Assembly: GCA_001778695.1 (NCBI GenBank)
Contig: MFHU01000004.1
Location: forward strand, 210-64,209
Length of the DNA stretch: 64,000 bases
Direction of reading: 5' to 3'
Source of the DNA: Candidatus Giovannonibacteria bacterium RIFCSPHIGHO2_12_FULL_44_22
Lineage (GTDB): Bacteria > Patescibacteriota > Minisyncoccia > UBA11713 > 2-01-FULL-45-33
Part shown: piece after piece, positions 3,780 to 53,753 of the stretch
Position numbering within the stretch: the stretch's first letter is position 1
Layout of the letters: every line of letters starts with the position of its first letter
Notes under the pieces: model-generated
Seen by the model: only the letters and a program-made list of their open reading frames with translations
What the model was told of the DNA's origin: nothing
Database searches by the model: none
Program-made: the position numbers and the translations under genes

Positions 3780-3798
3780 ACCCCTCCCTTTTCTCGCC

Positions 3799-4062
3799 AT
3801 GTTTTATGTCTATTTGATAAAAAATAATAATAAGCGCTGGTATATTGGGTCTACAAATGACTTAAAAAGAAGGATGACTGAGCATAATGCCGGCAAAAAC
3901 TTTTCAACTAAATATGATAAAACATGGAAATTAATATACTACGAAGCTTACTTGGACGAACACATGGCTAGAATAAGAGAGAAAAAGTTGAAAAGTTTTG
4001 GAAGTGCTTTTGGACACCTGTTAAAGCGTTTAGATATGGGCAATAAAAAAAAGGAGGGGTAA
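3799..4062 (+). CDS. GIY-YIG domain protein (YhbQ/UPF0213-like)
   Basis: YVYLIKNNNKRWYIGSTNDLKRRMTEHN GIY-YIG signature; paralog of 52924..53199. Confidence 0.7.
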   Translation: MFYVYLIKNNNKRWYIGSTNDLKRRMTEHNAGKNFSTKYDKTWKLIYYEAYLDEHMARIREKKLKSFGSAFGHLLKRLDMGNKKKEG

Positions 4063-4066
4063 ATTT

Positions 4067-4198
4067 ATGGAAAACGAAAAAATAGAAAAAGAAGATCAGC
4101 CCAAGGCTGACCAGCCTATGGCTGGAAAAATATTGTCCGATGAATTGCTCGCCGAAGATTTGGATTCGGAGCCGTCCCTTGACGATCTGCCGGTTTAA
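4067..4198 (+). CDS. Small acidic hypothetical protein (43 aa)
   Basis: Not in ORF track (<60 aa); strong SD AAGGAGGGG 11 nt upstream of ATG; MENEKIEKEDQPKADQPMAGKILSDELLAEDLDSEPSLDDLPV. Confidence 0.35.
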   Translation: MENEKIEKEDQPKADQPMAGKILSDELLAEDLDSEPSLDDLPV

Positions 4199-7404: not shown

Positions 7405-8055
7405 ATGAAAGTCAATACATATAATATAAAAGGAGAAAAAGCGGAGACTACGGAATTACCGGAGGGGATTTTTGGAGCGGCGTGGAAACCAGCACTAGTG
7501 AAGCAGGTTTTTGACGGCGAGATGGCAAATAAAAGACGCCCTTGGGCGCATACTAAAACCAGGGGCGAGGTCCGTGGCGGAGGCAGAAAGCCATGGCGGC
7601 AAAAAGGAACCGGACGCGCGAGGCATGGCTCAACCAGATCGCCATTGTGGGTTGGGGGAGGAATTGCTCACGGACCGAGAAATGAAAGGGATTATAGCGT
7701 AAAAATAAATAAAAAAATGAGGCGAGGGGCGCTGTTTTCTTTGCTTTCCAGAAAATTAAAAGACAAAGAAATTATTTTGATTGATAATTTTGAAATGGCT
7801 AAATCCAAAACTAGAGAAGCTTTTAATATTTTTAAAAATTTGAGGACAACGGGAGATATTTATAATTTAGGGATAAAAGGGGGGAAAGCGCTTCTGGCTT
7901 TGGCGAAAGGCGACGCTAAAAGGGCGGTCCATAATCTGCCTTTTGTAAATTTTATAGAGCCGAGAAATTTAAACGTCTCCGCGCTTTTGCAGAATAAATA
8001 TTTAATTTTGGATAAGGCCAGCATTAAAGAATTAGAAAAAACTTATGCCAGGTAG
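7405..8055 (+). CDS. rplD: 50S ribosomal protein L4
   Basis: KPWRQKGTGRARHGS...SPLWVGGG L4 signature. Confidence 0.9.
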   Translation: MKVNTYNIKGEKAETTELPEGIFGAAWKPALVKQVFDGEMANKRRPWAHTKTRGEVRGGGRKPWRQKGTGRARHGSTRSPLWVGGGIAHGPRNERDYSVKINKKMRRGALFSLLSRKLKDKEIILIDNFEMAKSKTREAFNIFKNLRTTGDIYNLGIKGGKALLALAKGDAKRAVHNLPFVNFIEPRNLNVSALLQNKYLILDKASIKELEKTYAR

Positions 8056-8186
8056 TGAAAAAATCGATTGCTTTTCGGTGATATTACAAAATCCAGCAGC
8101 TATCCTGCAGCTTTACATTGGGTCGAAATTTGAGGTTATATTTACAAAAGCATTATCATTAATCGATTTTTCTACTACCTGGTATG
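8044..8186 (+). repeat. Start-codon-associated hairpin element, long form (MITE-like), copy 1
   Basis: TATG|CCAGGTAGTGAAAAAATCGATTG...CAATCGATTTTTCTACTACCTGG|TATG; termini are inverted repeats; 3' ATG = rplW start; L4 stop TAG lies inside left terminus. Confidence 0.85.
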
Positions 8187-11490: not shown

Positions 11491-11635
11491 TATGCCAGGT
11501 AGTGAAAAAATCGATTGCTTTTCAGTGATATTACATAACCCGATAAATATCTGGCAATTTTACAGTTGGTCGAATTTTGCTATGTTTGGTTTATTAAAGC
11601 ATTATCACTAATCGATTTTTCTACTACCTGGTATG
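11491..11635 (+). repeat. Start-codon-associated hairpin element, long form, copy 2
   Basis: ~80% identical to copy 1 across 137 nt; same termini; 3' ATG = rpsQ start. Confidence 0.85.
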
Positions 11636-16774: not shown

Positions 16775-17377
16775 ATGATAAATCAACCCTACAATTTTAC
16801 TTTTATTGGACGGTCCGGCTGCGGCAAAGGTGCCCAATCGGAACTTCTTAAAAAATTATTGGAGGGAAAAAATGGCCCCGGCAGCGCGCTTTATATTTAT
16901 ACTGGCGCGCGTTTAAGAGAGCTCGCAGGCCACTCGGAGTTTTTTACAGCGAGATTGTTGAATGAAAAAAGTTTAAAATCCGGTGAGCTAACCCCAAATT
17001 CTTTAGCTATTTGGGCCTACACGACCGAATTTATTCACGGAGTGACGGAAAACAACCACATTATTGTAGACGGTTCTCCGCGCGCGGCGCTGGAAGCGCA
17101 AACGCTGGATGAAATGTTTGATTTTTATGGCAGAGAAAACGTTTTTCATGTTTGGCTGAATGTGAGCGAGGCATGGGCAAACGCGCGCATGAAAGAAAGG
17201 GGGCGATTCGATGACAGTCCTGAGAGCATTAAACACCGTTTCGCTTATTATGAAAGAGAAGTTGTTCCGACAATTGAATTTTACAAAAAAGATAAAAAAC
17301 ACAAGCTTATAGAAATCAATGGCGAGCAGACGATAGAAAAGGTTCACGAAGATATTGTAAAAGCGGCGGGATTATGA
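16775..17377 (+). CDS. adk: Adenylate kinase family protein (atypical P-loop GRSGCGKG, short LID)
   Basis: Position after secY; P-loop NMP kinase fold; ORF-track start 16769 is GTG, ATG at 16775. Confidence 0.65.
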   Translation: MINQPYNFTFIGRSGCGKGAQSELLKKLLEGKNGPGSALYIYTGARLRELAGHSEFFTARLLNEKSLKSGELTPNSLAIWAYTTEFIHGVTENNHIIVDGSPRAALEAQTLDEMFDFYGRENVFHVWLNVSEAWANARMKERGRFDDSPESIKHRFAYYEREVVPTIEFYKKDKKHKLIEINGEQTIEKVHEDIVKAAGL

Positions 17378-17517
17378 CCAGGTAGTGAAAAACTTGATCG
17401 CTTTTTTAAAATTTGTTTGCGATATGGGTTTACTGGGTTATATTGTAGTGGTAGGTGTTTAGCGATAGACTATTGAAAGCAATAAATTTTTAATCAAGTT
17501 TTTTACTACCTGGTATG
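17373..17517 (+). repeat. Start-codon-associated hairpin element, long form, copy 3
   Basis: Same termini (CCAGGTAGTGAAA / TTTTACTACCTGG), different interior; adk stop TGA overlaps left flank; 3' ATG = map start. Confidence 0.8.
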
Positions 17518-18267
17518 ATTATTAAAAATAAAAAAGAGCTGGAAATTTTGCGGGAAGGCGGCAAGAGACTTGCCGCCGTTTTAAACAAGGCAGCCAATAA
17601 CGCGATAGAAGGCGTCACGACCAGGGAGTTGAATGATTTGGCGGAAAGTTTAATTTTAAAATCCGGAGGCGCGCCGTCTTTTAAAGGATATAAAGCGCAG
17701 GGAGCTCCGCATCCTTACCCGGATGCGCTTTGTGTTTCAATAAACGAAGAGGTGGTGCATGGGTTGCCGGCTGGTCGCAAATTAAAAAATGGCGATATCG
17801 TTGGGTTGGACATAGGTATGTGGTATGAAGGCCTATGCACTGATACGGCTCTTACTGTTTTGGTTGGCGGAGGGAAAAATAAATTAATTGATGCCACAAA
17901 AAAATCTCTGGAGCTGGGGATTGCCGAAGTCCGCGCCGGCGCGCATGCCGGCGATATTGGTTTTGCGATTCAAAAATATTTGAAGAGTGAGGGTTTTGGC
18001 GTAGTGCGAGAATTGGTTGGGCATGGCGTTGGAAGAGCGGTTCACGAAGACCCGGAAATCCCAAATTGGGGAAAACGCGGCGTCGGACCGGAACTGGTTG
18101 AAAATATGATTATTGCTTTAGAGCCTATGGCCACTGAAGGCGGATATAAAGTAAAACTTTCCAAAGACGGTTGGACATGGCTCACTTGCGACGGCTCCCG
18201 CTCCGCGCATTTTGAGCATACTTTGGTGGTGACAAAAGGCGGGGCGGAGGTATTGACTCTACTTTAG
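17515..18267 (+). CDS. map: Type I methionine aminopeptidase
   Basis: Pita-bread fold metal ligands (D..D..H..E..E), 250 aa. Confidence 0.95.
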   Translation: MIIKNKKELEILREGGKRLAAVLNKAANNAIEGVTTRELNDLAESLILKSGGAPSFKGYKAQGAPHPYPDALCVSINEEVVHGLPAGRKLKNGDIVGLDIGMWYEGLCTDTALTVLVGGGKNKLIDATKKSLELGIAEVRAGAHAGDIGFAIQKYLKSEGFGVVRELVGHGVGRAVHEDPEIPNWGKRGVGPELVENMIIALEPMATEGGYKVKLSKDGWTWLTCDGSRSAHFEHTLVVTKGGAEVLTLL

Positions 18268-27284: not shown

Positions 27285-27359
27285 TATGCCAGGTAGTGAA
27301 ATTTCGCATCACTACTTGGTAGTAATTAAAATTAATGCGAAATTCTACTACCTGGTATG
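27285..27359 (+). repeat. Start-codon-associated hairpin element, short form (67 nt), copy 4
   Basis: TATG|CCAGGTAGTGAAATTTCGCATC-ACTACTTGGTAGT-...-AATGCGAAATTCTACTACCTGG|TATG; 3' ATG = ndk start. Confidence 0.85.
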
Positions 27360-44939: not shown

Positions 44940-45283
44940 GGGGATGATCGGCCTCGAGGGAGAGCGATTGATCATGCGTTCAGGCACCCCGCCAGGGCGG
45001 GGTTAAATCTCACCCCTGGGAAATCAATAAGTGCAAACTTATTTTCTAAAGTAACCGCTGCTTTTGGCGCTTTGCGTCCAATGCAGTTGGCAACTTCTTA
45101 CGCTTAACCGCGTAGGCATCCGTCCTTGATTCTCGCTAAAGGGTCGCGGGTGTTATAAGCGAGAAAAACTCTATCAAGAGTATAACTTGAAAAAATTTTT
45201 CCCGAGAGCAATCGAGGGAATAAGCCTGTAAACCGTAGATCATGATTTTTTCCGACCCGGGTTCAATTCCCGGCATCTCCACA
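44940..45283 (+). ncRNA. ssrA: tmRNA (SsrA)
   Basis: 5' GGGGAUG pairs with 3' CAUCUCC acceptor stem; T-arm CCGGGTTCAATTCCCGG; follows smpB; candidate tag ORF ...ATSYA*. Confidence 0.7.
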
Positions 45284-45312
45284 TCTTGGGTTTTTTAAGC
45301 TAAAGTTAACTT

Positions 45313-47644: not shown

Positions 47645-47673
47645 GCCCCGCCTTTCATTAGGCGGGTTTTTTT
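47645..47673 (+). terminator. Rho-independent terminator (CCCCGCC...GGCGGG + T7)
   Basis: GC stem, 8-nt loop, TTTTTTT. Confidence 0.8.
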
Positions 47674-47686
47674 GTTATACTTTTTT

Positions 47687-47761
47687 TATACCAGGCAGTG
47701 AAACTTCGCGTTGCTGCTTGGCAGTTATTAAACTTAACGCGAAGTTCTACTACCTGGTATG
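47687..47761 (+). repeat. Start-codon-associated hairpin element, short form (67 nt), copy 5
   Basis: TATA|CCAGGCAGTGAAACTTCGCGTTG-GCTGCTTGGCAGT-...-AACGCGAAGTTCTACTACCTGG|TATG; 3' ATG = ileS start. Confidence 0.8.
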
Positions 47762-52361: not shown

Positions 52362-52922
52362 ATGCCCAGCGCGTATTTTAAAACCGAAGGTTTAATTATT
52401 AAAAAGATGCCTTTTGCGGAGGCGGATTTTTTGGTGAGAGTTTTTACGAAAGATTTCGGCAAAATGGACGCGCTGGCGAAAGGCGCGAGGAAAACCGCTT
52501 CAAAACTCAATCCGCATCTGGATATTTTAAACCATATCCGCATGCAGTTTGTGAAAAACGGCGAGCGGATTTCGACATTAATGGACGCCGAGATTATCTC
52601 TAAATACGATGATTGGTTTTTGACCGCGGATAAACTCTCTGTCGCGGGAAGAATTTTACAGGTAATTGATATGGTTATTCTGCCCGGCGCCAAAGACGGA
52701 AAATTATTTTTTATGTTACTGGATTTTTTTTCCGCCCGAGGCGGATCCGCCTTTGGCGGAGGATCTTTTGAGACTGTGGCAATAAATTTCCTCCGCAATT
52801 TTTTTAAGCACGAGGGCTACGGCGACACTTTGCCGGGTAGTGAAGCGCAGCTCTACTACCCGGCTTTGCCAGATTATTGTAGAGAAGCTATTATTAAACT
52901 TTGGCCTCAATTAAAAAATTGA
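52362..52922 (+). CDS. recO: DNA repair protein RecO (short, C-terminal region remodelled)
   Basis: N-terminal OB-fold FKTEGLIIKKMPFAEADFLVRVFTKDFGKMDALAKGARK; 186 aa; C-terminus carries two palindromic inserts. Confidence 0.65.
   Translation: MPSAYFKTEGLIIKKMPFAEADFLVRVFTKDFGKMDALAKGARKTASKLNPHLDILNHIRMQFVKNGERISTLMDAEIISKYDDWFLTADKLSVAGRILQVIDMVILPGAKDGKLFFMLLDFFSARGGSAFGGGSFETVAINFLRNFFKHEGYGDTLPGSEAQLYYPALPDYCREAIIKLWPQLKN
52731..52760. repeat. 30-nt double-hairpin palindromic element, in-frame in recO
   Basis: TCCGCCCGAGGCGGATCCGCCTTTGGCGGA encodes SARGGSAFGG. Confidence 0.9.
52833..52863 (+). repeat. 31-nt mini version of the start-codon hairpin element, in-frame inside recO
   Basis: CCGGGTAGTGAAG-CGCAG-CTCTACTACCCGG encodes PGSEAQLYYP. 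Confidence 0.75.
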
Positions 52923-52923
52923 T

Positions 52924-53199
52924 ATGAAGTTTTATTATGTTTATCTTTTAGAAAGCATTAAGAATGGCAATTTATATATTGGCTATACTAAGGATTTACT
53001 TAGGCGTATTAAAGAACATAATCAGGGTTTAAATTTTTCTACTAAACCTTATCGTCCTTGGCGTTTAATTTATTACGAGGCATGTCTTAACGAGAAGGAC
53101 GCGGAGAGAAGAGAAAAATATTTAAAGACAAATCAAGACGCCAGGCTCATTAAGCGCAGAATAAAAGAATATCTTTATTTAAAGCGCATTCAGGAGTAA
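52924..53199 (+). CDS. GIY-YIG domain protein (YhbQ/UPF0213-like), paralog of 3799..4062
   Basis: YVYLLESIKNGNLYIGYTKDLLRRIKEHN. Confidence 0.7.
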   Translation: MKFYYVYLLESIKNGNLYIGYTKDLLRRIKEHNQGLNFSTKPYRPWRLIYYEACLNEKDAERREKYLKTNQDARLIKRRIKEYLYLKRIQE

Positions 53200-53208
53200 T
53201 ATAAAAAT

Positions 53209-53598
53209 ATGAAGCCAGAATCAATTAATCACATACTGCTTATGGTTAGTAATGTGAAAAAAACCGAGAAGTTTTATGTCAAAATTTTGGGCAAACCAAT
53301 ACATAAAGACAAAGATTCTGTGGCATGGAAAATTAGGGACACAAAATTATTTTTCGGTTTGCCATTTAAGAAATTGAGAGGCAATGTGTTTAATCGAAAT
53401 CACATTGGTCTCAATCATTTGGCTTTCGCGGTTCGTACTTTGAACGAATTGAAGAAATGGGAGAAAAAATTAAATGACTCAGGAATTAAAAACAGTGGGA
53501 TAATTAAAGATAAATACAAAAATCAAGATTATATTTGGTTTGATGACCCAGATAATATAAGACAGGAATTTTATCTACATCCACCTAATGAGGAATGA
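53209..53598 (+). CDS. VOC/glyoxalase-like family protein
   Basis: HILLMVSNVKKTEKFYVKILG ... HLAFAV. Confidence 0.5.
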   Translation: MKPESINHILLMVSNVKKTEKFYVKILGKPIHKDKDSVAWKIRDTKLFFGLPFKKLRGNVFNRNHIGLNHLAFAVRTLNELKKWEKKLNDSGIKNSGIIKDKYKNQDYIWFDDPDNIRQEFYLHPPNEE

Positions 53599-53608
53599 AA
53601 CTAAAAAC

Positions 53609-53753
53609 TATGCCAGGTAGTGAAATTTCGCATCGTCGCTACGCGACGCGCTTTTATTGAGTGTGGCAGGCGCATTATTTTAAGGTATAATGGTTTTATG
53701 TTCAACAACGTCAAAACAATTACTAGCAATGCGAAATTCTACTACCTGGTATG
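53609..53753 (+). repeat. Start-codon-associated hairpin element, long form, copy 6
   Basis: Shares subterminal TTTCGCATC/ATGCGAAA with short copy 4; 137 nt; 3' ATG = start of 53751 gene. Confidence 0.85.

Follow-up and report, generated by a model that had tools for sequence, protein, structure and literature searches.

The window analyzed here is a 64-kb stretch of contig MFHU01000004.1 from Candidatus Giovannonibacteria bacterium RIFCSPHIGHO2_12_FULL_44_22, an ultra-small bacterium of the candidate phyla radiation (CPR, or Patescibacteria). All coordinates are those of the window, and names consisting of L and three digits denote DNA stretches fetched for comparison. Six hairpin elements with shared terminal arms reside in this window, each directly in front of a protein-coding gene, and a seventh, very small copy lies inside recO. 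They are listed in Table 1 as MITEs (miniature transposable elements with inverted repeats) with their flanking tetra- or pentanucleotides, which in most cases form target-site duplications (TSDs). Searches with the arm motifs recover the six larger copies on the plus strand where the original prediction had placed them. The 13-mer CCAGGTAGTGAAA, allowing at most two mismatches, has 13 matches in the window versus 0.77 expected, and the 3' arm plus TATG (TTCTACTACCTGGTATG) has six versus 0.04 expected. TATG or a similar sequence is indeed seen on both sides of all six: four copies are flanked by TATG/TATG, the adk/map copy by TATGA/TATGA and the ileS copy by TATA/TATG. The long bodies (c1, c2, c3 and c6) measure 135-137 nt.

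Table 1. Hairpin elements and GIY-YIG nuclease genes of the window
Feature	Coordinates (strand)	Location	Flanks or homology
MITE c1, long	8048..8182 (+)	rplD (L4) / rplW (L23) junction	TATG at 8044-8047 and 8183-8186
MITE c2, long	11495..11631 (+)	rpmC (L29) / rpsQ (S17) junction	TSD TATG 11491-11494 and 11632-11635
MITE c3, long	17378..17513 (+)	adk / map junction	5-bp TSD TATGA 17373-17377 and 17514-17518
MITE c4, short, 67 nt	27289..27355 (+)	5' of ndk	TSD TATG 27285-27288 and 27356-27359
MITE c5, short, 67 nt	47691..47757 (+)	5' of ileS	TATA 47687-47690 left, TATG 47758-47761 right
MITE c6, long	53613..53749 (+)	5' of 624-aa DUF11 gene	TSD TATG 53609-53612 and 53750-53753
31-nt micro-copy	52833..52863 (+)	inside recO	5-bp TSD CTTTG 52828-52832 and 52864-52868
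Armless GIY-YIG gene, intact, 91 aa	52924..53199 (+)		PF01541 E 5e-19; 64% identical to armed L027 nuclease
Second armless GIY-YIG gene, intact, 87 aa	3799..4062 (+)		PF01541 E 4e-15

Open reading frames (ORFs) starting at 8184, 11633, 17515, 27357, 47759 and 53751 begin at the right-hand ATGs of c1 to c6 and encode L23, S17, methionine aminopeptidase, Ndk, IleS and the 624-aa DUF11 protein, respectively. All of these ORFs are long. Relatives that lack the elements use the same start codons for L23, S17, map and ndk, in line with the proposal that these ATGs are genuine start codons. The stop codon of the L4 gene (TAG, 8053-8055) lies inside the 5' arm of c1, again as claimed, and L4 ends in ...EKTYAR* here versus ...EKTYAV* in relatives. 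The L23 gene (8184-8651) encodes 155 aa, of which the Pfam L23 domain covers residues 71-153 only. The resulting N-terminal extension of ~70 aa is also present in relatives (154-158 aa in L250-L252). The ileS copy, c5, sits just 3' of a terminator-like hairpin at 47647-47666.

Folding computations bear out the hairpins suggested by the original prediction: each of the six copies forms a long hairpin, whether computed as RNA (z-scores between -5.8 and -10.2) or as either strand of DNA. The DNA computation also included the 31-nt recO copy. The RNA hairpin takes in the AUG. Four different inner stems occur in the window.

Empty sites and recent copies

Two related Giovannonibacteria genomes (L250 and L251) encode Map proteins that are 80-81% identical to that of the window and carry the same ribosomal-protein/secY/adk/map operon, with empty junctions. 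At four junctions, namely L4/L23, L29/S17, adk/map and the one upstream of ndk, the empty site consists of the left flank, one TATG or TATGA and the right flank, exact to the base. The sequences in both relatives are ...AAAAACTTATGCCGTTTAA... for c1, ...AAATAATATGGCGCAAG... for c2 and ...GGGTTATGATTATTAAAAAT... for c3, and that for c4, from L250, is ...TTTTTGAAATATGAAAAAGCC.... Because the empty sites hold a single TATG or TATGA, 4 or 5 bp were duplicated on insertion. The ancestral L4 and L23 genes overlapped, as the empty site ATGCCGTTTAA preserves. To explain the empty sites as precise deletions instead, one would have to place the element in the ancestor at every junction, and its patchy distribution speaks against such an assumption. 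Copy c3 is retained in strains whose map protein is 99% identical.

Further evidence for movement comes from duplicated copies. A 130-nt MITE is 100% identical at two unrelated sites within one metagenome-assembled genome, and one full-length element occurs at two unrelated sites with 99.4-99.7% identity. Near-identity at unrelated sites indicates recent movement. The elements are short (31-137 nt), have terminal inverted repeats, are bracketed by TSDs with matching empty sites, and share their termini with a longer coding element, which are the properties by which MITEs are recognized. The protein encoded by this coding partner is a GIY-YIG protein and not a recognized type of transposase. 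To judge from these comparisons, the elements are mobile DNA, the non-autonomous copies of a hairpin-ended family found across the CPR. The original prediction had offered non-autonomous, TATG-targeting MITEs as one of two interpretations and had proposed that empty sites be sought in sister genomes. The exact empty sites at four orthologous junctions, the variable but matching TSDs and the near-identical copies at unrelated sites all favor that interpretation.

Two further copies lie in or near recO. At the junction occupied by c6, recO directly overlaps the 624-aa DUF11 gene in relatives L258 and L259. The window has at this point a block of ~830 bp (52923-53750) comprising an armless GIY-YIG gene, a glyoxalase gene and c6. 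This block is not in L258 (CP066687.1) or L259, where recO and the DUF11 gene overlap by 22 nt, and the overlap segment of ~23 nt is present twice in the window in diverged form (TTTGGCCTCAATTAAAAAATTGA and TATGGCCAATCTTGAAGAGCTGA). GIY-YIG proteins and glyoxalases are listed in one paper among genes horizontally transferred from Patescibacteria. Within recO itself (ORF 52362-52922), the micro-copy consists of arm positions 1-13 and a 5-nt loop, with a CCGGG/CCCGG variant. Together with its CTTTG duplication it adds 36 nt in frame, and the resulting 12-aa insert in RecO (PGSEAQLYYPAL) is missing from nine of 11 orthologues.

Arms, targets and distribution of the family

Members of the family have two 20-nt arms (CCAGGTAGTGAAA...TTCTACTACCTGG), and a comparison of 221 unique arm pairs shows mutual pairing at 18 of the 20 positions. 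At positions 1-9 (CCAGGTAGT), the arms are paired and nearly invariant; in the rare cases in which position 3 or 6 changes, its partner changes with it (T:A, A:T and C:G; also in L120 and L128). Position 10 is always G.T and position 11 is A.C in 218 of the 221 pairs. This irregularity gives the element its polarity. Positions 12-13 are A:T, all four Watson-Crick pair types occur at every one of positions 14-20 with 93-97% complementarity, and pairing ends at position 20. The subterminal stems that differ between copies while remaining complementary, a feature first described for the window, are therefore real and family-wide. Copies of 31 nt keep only positions 1-13 and a loop, which suggests that these positions are the essential cis element.

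A combination of free sequence and retained pairing at positions 14-20 is the prediction of a hairpin substrate, and not of two separate double-stranded transposase sites. Because these positions vary yet stay complementary, they argue for a single-stranded hairpin intermediate. The earlier proposal of selection on hairpin structure is thus strongly confirmed by the 221 arm pairs. The target of such selection is most likely an intermediate of transposition that consists of single-stranded DNA, and not mRNA.

A two-arm pattern scan that leaves the flanks unspecified finds the arms in at least 119 genome stretches; counts from the genome and metagenome collections do not include the short class. 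The lineages named in 80 listed rows, representing about four dozen assemblies, are mostly CPR/Patescibacteria, including Parcubacteria and Yanofsky-, Portnoy-, Harrison-, Jorgensen-, Lipton-, Doudna- and Gottesmanbacteria, with a few TPA bins labeled otherwise. Microgenomates and Doudnabacteria are also among the CPR groups that have the arms. No matches to the short, long or full-length patterns occur in 2.9 million viral contigs, and a phage vector was discarded on this basis. We found no description of such MITEs or of GIY-YIG elements in the literature on CPR bacteria, and the family is apparently undescribed.

Rather than the two size classes originally assigned, the family has four, of about 31, 70, 135 and 315 nt. 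Copies of the ~70-nt class carry a small internal palindrome at 27313-27323 and 47715-47725 in the window, and similar ones in L146:8487-8559 and other copies (CTACTTGGTAG, CTGCTTGGCAG and CACTGCCGCGGCAGTG). It resembles two arm cores placed head to head and may be a scar of the origin of the short form. Elements are often found in tandem and share a single TATG (L028, L044, L066, L096, L146, L167, L180, L197, L212 and L244; left flank ...CCTGGTATG), as if each new element had inserted into the duplication left by the one before. Copies of full length and of ~70 nt adjoin each other in either order. L082:4209-4380 contains five tandem 34-bp units after a terminator-like hairpin. Each is a mini hairpin of the arm core (CCAGGTAGTAGAGCATAGCACACTGCCTGGCAAG), and the whole is an array form of this core.

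Direct duplications around 130 copies are dominated by TATG/TATG. CATA/CATA represents the same target with the element flipped, and TTGA, ATAA, TGTA, TATA, CTCA, AAAA, CGTG, CTTG and others also occur. In 257 unique insertions the tetramer is TATG in 106 and CATA in 21. The TSD is usually 4 bp, sometimes 3 or 5 bp, and is overwhelmingly YATR, mostly TATG. Conservation of the site is limited to YATG, with remaining flanks that are just A/T-rich, so an extended target was rejected.

Start codons are the usual, but not the only, location of these insertions. Of these 130 copies, 70 touch the ATG of a co-oriented ORF (60 aa or longer), 26 touch the start of a leftward gene and have the opposite orientation, three have starts on both sides and 31 adjoin no start. 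About three-quarters are at a start codon, and the orientations split roughly 3:1. The match between element and gene orientation that the original prediction described holds in the window only, since 26-29 of about 100 start-abutting MITEs in the family are flipped. Full-length copies are more uniform, with 58 forward versus four flipped.

Sequence context accounts for part of this pattern. In the window, TATG is already the context of 42 of the 68 called starts, and T precedes 62% of ATG starts at position -1 (51% across CPR loci). TATG is the default start context that the element exploits. The genes behind the elements do lack a Shine-Dalgarno sequence, as noted earlier, but this has no special meaning, since motifs of this kind precede only five of the 68 genes in the window. 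Nor are suitable sites rare, as had been assumed for intergenic TATG: TATG or CATA occurs at 355 coding and 40 intergenic positions and at 39 unoccupied starts in the window. When all loci are taken together, called starts hold at least 74% of the TATG/CATA insertions versus ~22% expected among TATG sites outside coding interiors, although gene calling is rough. Because selection alone cannot make one tetramer dominate, the TATG preference is mechanistic. The start enrichment that exceeds both this preference and the loss of intragenic insertions may reflect selection or targeting. The 5' arm provides TAG-TGA stop codons for an overlapping upstream gene. Since the duplication regenerates the ATG and the arm supplies these stops, insertion at a start codon leaves both neighbors intact. 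Such insertions are the majority of surviving copies.

The enclosed nuclease gene and modes of movement

In L027, the same arms enclose a GIY-YIG nuclease ORF. A second two-arm scan with L027-like spacing and no flank bias identifies at least 120 metagenome stretches with arms spaced for a full-length element of 305-335 bp. The original prediction had suggested looking for a cognate transposase with matching termini. The matching arms around a coding gene exist, whereas the product of this gene is a nuclease and not a recognized transposase. A GIY-YIG ORF of ~88 aa is recognizable in 86 of these 120 stretches, where it is the only gene between the arms, with L027, L120 and L128 as worked examples. 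Its own Met is ~10 codons inside the element, and its stop falls at the 3' arm, 19-20 nt short of the element end. The ATG of the left duplication shares its reading frame in 53 of the 86 elements. Among the 120 closest protein homologues, about 35 are called with an MPGSE(N/T)S... N terminus, which is ATG plus the translated 5' arm. The nucleases match the Pfam GIY-YIG family PF01541 with E-values of 1e-15 to 1e-19, have no second domain, and retain invariant catalytic Tyr, Tyr, Gly, Arg, His and Glu residues. This is a large family: a cutoff of E <= 0.001 yields 8,827 cluster representatives, and one of E <= 1e-10 yields 1,206.

The two armless nuclease genes of the window are 53-76% identical to armed ones, and the gene at 52924 is a candidate for a trans-acting nuclease that serves the MITEs. 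The gene at 3799 has CCCCTCCC upstream (3781-3788) and GGAGGGG at its 3' end (4053-4059), where it is the Shine-Dalgarno sequence of the next gene (ATG at 4067). This bracket may be due to chance or may represent a different, degenerate arm pair. One MITE, in L009, still holds the C-terminal 22 codons of the nuclease ORF, whereas a hidden Markov model of the nuclease detects nothing in 144 of 145 MITE interiors. These other interiors are AT-rich and unrecognizable, and the window copies align to full-length elements at the arms only. An apparent 'LYIG' remnant in c1 was dropped, as the same model scores nothing there.

The arrangement of a nuclease gene between hairpin-forming arms resembles that of the Ssn nucleases (Chenal et al., Nat Commun 2025; PMC11893778). 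These single-domain GIY-YIG proteins of ~94 aa bind single-stranded DNA at a hairpin repeat (NTS/SRM), next to which they cut it, and their genes are flanked by NTS/SRM repeats in a layout that the authors liken to an insertion sequence. By this analogy, we infer that the CPR nuclease is the transposase. It would recognize the arms as a single-stranded DNA hairpin that unites both junctions and cut there, and host repair or replication would complete the move. The predicted excision product is an arm-to-arm junction, ...CTACTACCTGG/CCAGGTAGTG.... MITEs would be served in trans, and the window contains two intact armless nuclease genes that could do so. Insertions at TATG starts would persist because the ATG is regenerated and the arm stops the upstream gene. 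Co-orientation would allow the nuclease ORF to be transcribed, and often translated, from host signals. In most copies the ORF is in frame behind the original start codon of the host and could thus borrow its expression signals. The mRNA hairpin would be a tolerated by-product and not the reason that the element exists. We consider it likely that the window's MITEs belong to a tiny hairpin transposon with an Ssn-like GIY-YIG nuclease, and that TATG start codons are where it survives. The stronger claim, that this is a new class of autonomous transposon with an ~88-aa Ssn-like GIY-YIG protein as its sole product, a single-stranded hairpin intermediate and landing at TATG start codons, has about an even chance of being correct.

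Several observations weigh against this model. We know of no GIY-YIG enzyme that joins DNA or carries out transposition. Clean 4-bp duplications at a near-palindromic target, here YATR, are the classic signature of DDE enzymes acting on double-stranded DNA, and the known single-strand transposons of the IS200/IS605 group make no target duplication. The gene-proximal copy of the TSD is almost always TATG, whereas the distal copy is YATG (T in ~71-87%, C in 12-21%). This asymmetry is independent of element direction and is present even in a 100%-identical recent pair (for example, L015:924-1053 versus the minus-strand copy in L022); it is not explained by a simple 4-bp duplication. The window's nuclease genes lack arms, so that their tie to the MITEs is circumstantial, and with a nuclease remnant in only one MITE interior the descent of MITEs from full-length elements rests mainly on the arms. 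The nuclease is about as similar to UPF0213/YhbQ proteins (structure 1zg2, E 6e-7) as to an Ssn-type protein. The published SRM consensus, HGTCWYN(0-2)YYVSBRHN(0-5)WNVSBRGN(0-2)RNCYNB, fits none of 295 CPR elements, whereas the Azospirillum and Rhizobium control loci have four fits each. Finally, the characterized Ssn enzymes only cut single-stranded DNA (PMC11893778).

Some of these points would be accounted for if the elements were ordinary MITEs of a conventional DDE transposon related to IS5, IS1380 or piggyBac that is rare or absent in the sampled DNA. The GIY-YIG gene would then be a passenger or a secondary selfish gene lodged within the MITE. CC...GG inverted termini, 4-5-bp duplications at near-palindromic YATR and insertion in both orientations are all typical of DDE elements, and strand transfer is not a known activity of GIY-YIG enzymes, with only cleavage of single-stranded DNA reported for Ssn (PMC11893778). 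However, no element with the same arms 0.4-4 kb apart and a larger ORF between them was found in 1.7 Mb of fetched DNA around more than 250 copies. Distant or unpaired arms that first looked like such a partner proved to be neighboring independent copies. Moreover, in 86 or more independent, diverged copies the ORF comes within 20 nt of filling the space from arm to arm, and therefore arms and ORF have co-evolved as a unit. Nor would double-stranded end recognition lead one to expect arms that drift at positions 14-20 yet stay complementary. The 31-nt copies retain a stem of just 13 bp. On balance, a conventional DDE origin is unlikely.

A homing-endonuclease cassette, in which intact TATG sites are cleaved by the GIY-YIG protein and repair of the double-strand break, not transposition, copies the element in, is very improbable. 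GIY-YIG proteins are classic homing endonucleases, the CPR nuclease weakly matches TIGR01453 (group I intron endonuclease), and identical full-length copies recur at the same site across many metagenome samples. Homing nevertheless requires flanking homology, and the hundreds of unrelated sites occupied by the family share only 4 bp. The near-identical copies at unrelated sites likewise imply insertion without homology to the donor flanks. Homing also makes no target duplications, the non-coding MITEs and 31-nt copies spread too, and the nuclease has no DNA-binding domain besides its ~88-aa catalytic core.

Least probable of all is the second interpretation in the original prediction, a structured translation or processing signal, in which host-selected RNA structures at gene starts serve as RNase processing sites or couple translation in a genome nearly without Shine-Dalgarno sequences and position reflects function. 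The very stable RNA hairpins that include the AUG, their location at the starts of essential, tightly packed genes and a start-codon enrichment above simple expectation fit this idea, but orthologous junctions in close relatives work without the element, and copies occur in both orientations, at non-ATG sites and in frame within recO. Translational coupling through a remnant ORF was discarded, as the ORF that opens at the upstream ATG mostly terminates within the element; only in 15 of 73 MITEs does it extend to the host ATG. An internal promoter like that of Correia elements was also rejected: matches to -10/-35 hexamers are equally frequent on both strands of 143 MITEs and reflect AT-richness only. 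The copies have no Rfam match, with E-value scans at two of them returning only generic, sub-threshold hairpins of the miRNA type. A scan of the whole window against Rfam 15 at gathering thresholds returns only a tmRNA gene (44940-45284; 85 bits; tag peptide ANLFSKVTAAFGALRPMQLATSYA), which has no relation to the hairpin elements. Integron attC sites and group I or II introns were dismissed on anatomy (duplications, no such enzymes, no Rfam match). Cut-and-paste by restriction and ligation with TATG overhangs was dismissed by reasoning, since overhangs that are not palindromic would not permit flipped insertions, which do occur.

If the GIY-YIG protein is the mobilizing enzyme, it would add a new catalytic class to the DDE, HUH, serine, tyrosine and Cas1 DNA transposases. 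At ~315 bp, the element would undercut all known self-contained transposons in size and be the first to use a GIY-YIG transposase. To our knowledge, the biological role of Ssn nucleases outside Neisseria is not known. These nucleases would gain a concrete origin as transposon enzymes, a possibility that the 2025 Ssn paper raised as a hypothesis only (PMC11893778). Streamlined CPR genomes, usually called poor in mobile DNA, carry an abundant parasite that slots into operons and leaves them unbroken, changes the ends of proteins (L4) and can add peptide segments (RecO). The copies also offer natural test cases for translation that starts without a Shine-Dalgarno sequence immediately after a hairpin of very high stability. 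Many of the nucleases, and probably some host genes, are mis-annotated by gene callers as starting with MPGSE..., the translated arm. Pairs of arms and nucleases could extend the toolbox for cutting single-stranded DNA that has been proposed for Ssn enzymes.

Comparison with known systems

Rickettsia palindromic elements (RPE) are mobile palindromic repeats that insert in frame into coding genes and add peptides to them, as does the recO copy. They differ in being unrelated in sequence and longer (~100-150 nt), and have no known preference for start codons. Rickettsia is among the SRM-rich genera (PMC11893778). Correia elements of Neisseria (CREE/NEMIS) are inverted-repeat MITEs of 100-155 bp with discrete sizes that occur near gene starts, are co-transcribed and form mRNA hairpins. 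However, they duplicate TA, have unrelated 26-bp repeats, lack a known autonomous partner, are confined to Neisseria and show no coupling to start codons.

Elements of the piggyBac/IS1380 and IS5 groups share CC...GG termini, 4-bp duplication of a near-palindromic tetranucleotide (TTAA, YTAR) and MITE derivatives with the CPR family. In contrast, no DDE transposase is seen in the 1.7 Mb of DNA fetched for the CPR family, its ~315-bp form contains only the GIY-YIG gene, and its compensatory arm changes point to intramolecular pairing. The IS200/IS605 and REP/RAYT systems, which transpose as single strands ('peel and paste'), are similar in other respects. They are small, their hairpin ends are recognized on one DNA strand, and they insert beside a specific tetra- or pentanucleotide. 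Many non-autonomous hairpin derivatives (REP, PATE) are served in trans. Unlike the CPR elements, these systems use an HUH Y1 transposase, have subterminal hairpins that are local to each end and produce no TSD. Assignment of the CPR family to this group was rejected because its only ORF is GIY-YIG, its arms are terminal and mutually paired, and duplications are present.

The Ssn family is the only close precedent found for the CPR element. Both have a single-domain GIY-YIG gene of ~90-100 aa with shared catalytic residues, and in both this gene is bracketed by hairpin repeats that are also dispersed in the genome. The CPR element is one hairpin split by the gene, whereas Ssn genes have separate local hairpins of 20-50 nt on each side. 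TSDs, empty sites, discrete deletion derivatives and start-codon insertion are known for the CPR element and are not reported for Ssn; the Ssn study describes no duplications, empty sites or movement, and its survey did not include CPR genomes (PMC11893778). The element appears to work like an Ssn/SRM unit, and its nuclease may belong to CDD clade cd10448, to UPF0213 (cd10456) or to another small GIY-YIG clade. A plasmid search with the CPR nuclease leads to an Azospirillum GIY-YIG protein that is 39% identical to the window protein over 83 aa (pairwise E 3e-13). On Azospirillum lipoferum plasmid NC_016623.1 (L253, 255.4-256.0 kb), sufB and sufC are separated by a 97-aa GIY-YIG gene with an inverted pair of NTS-like hairpins (CGTCATCCCCGCGAAGGCGGGGATCCAG) on either side. 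This locus is an Ssn-type cassette located inside an operon, much like the CPR elements.

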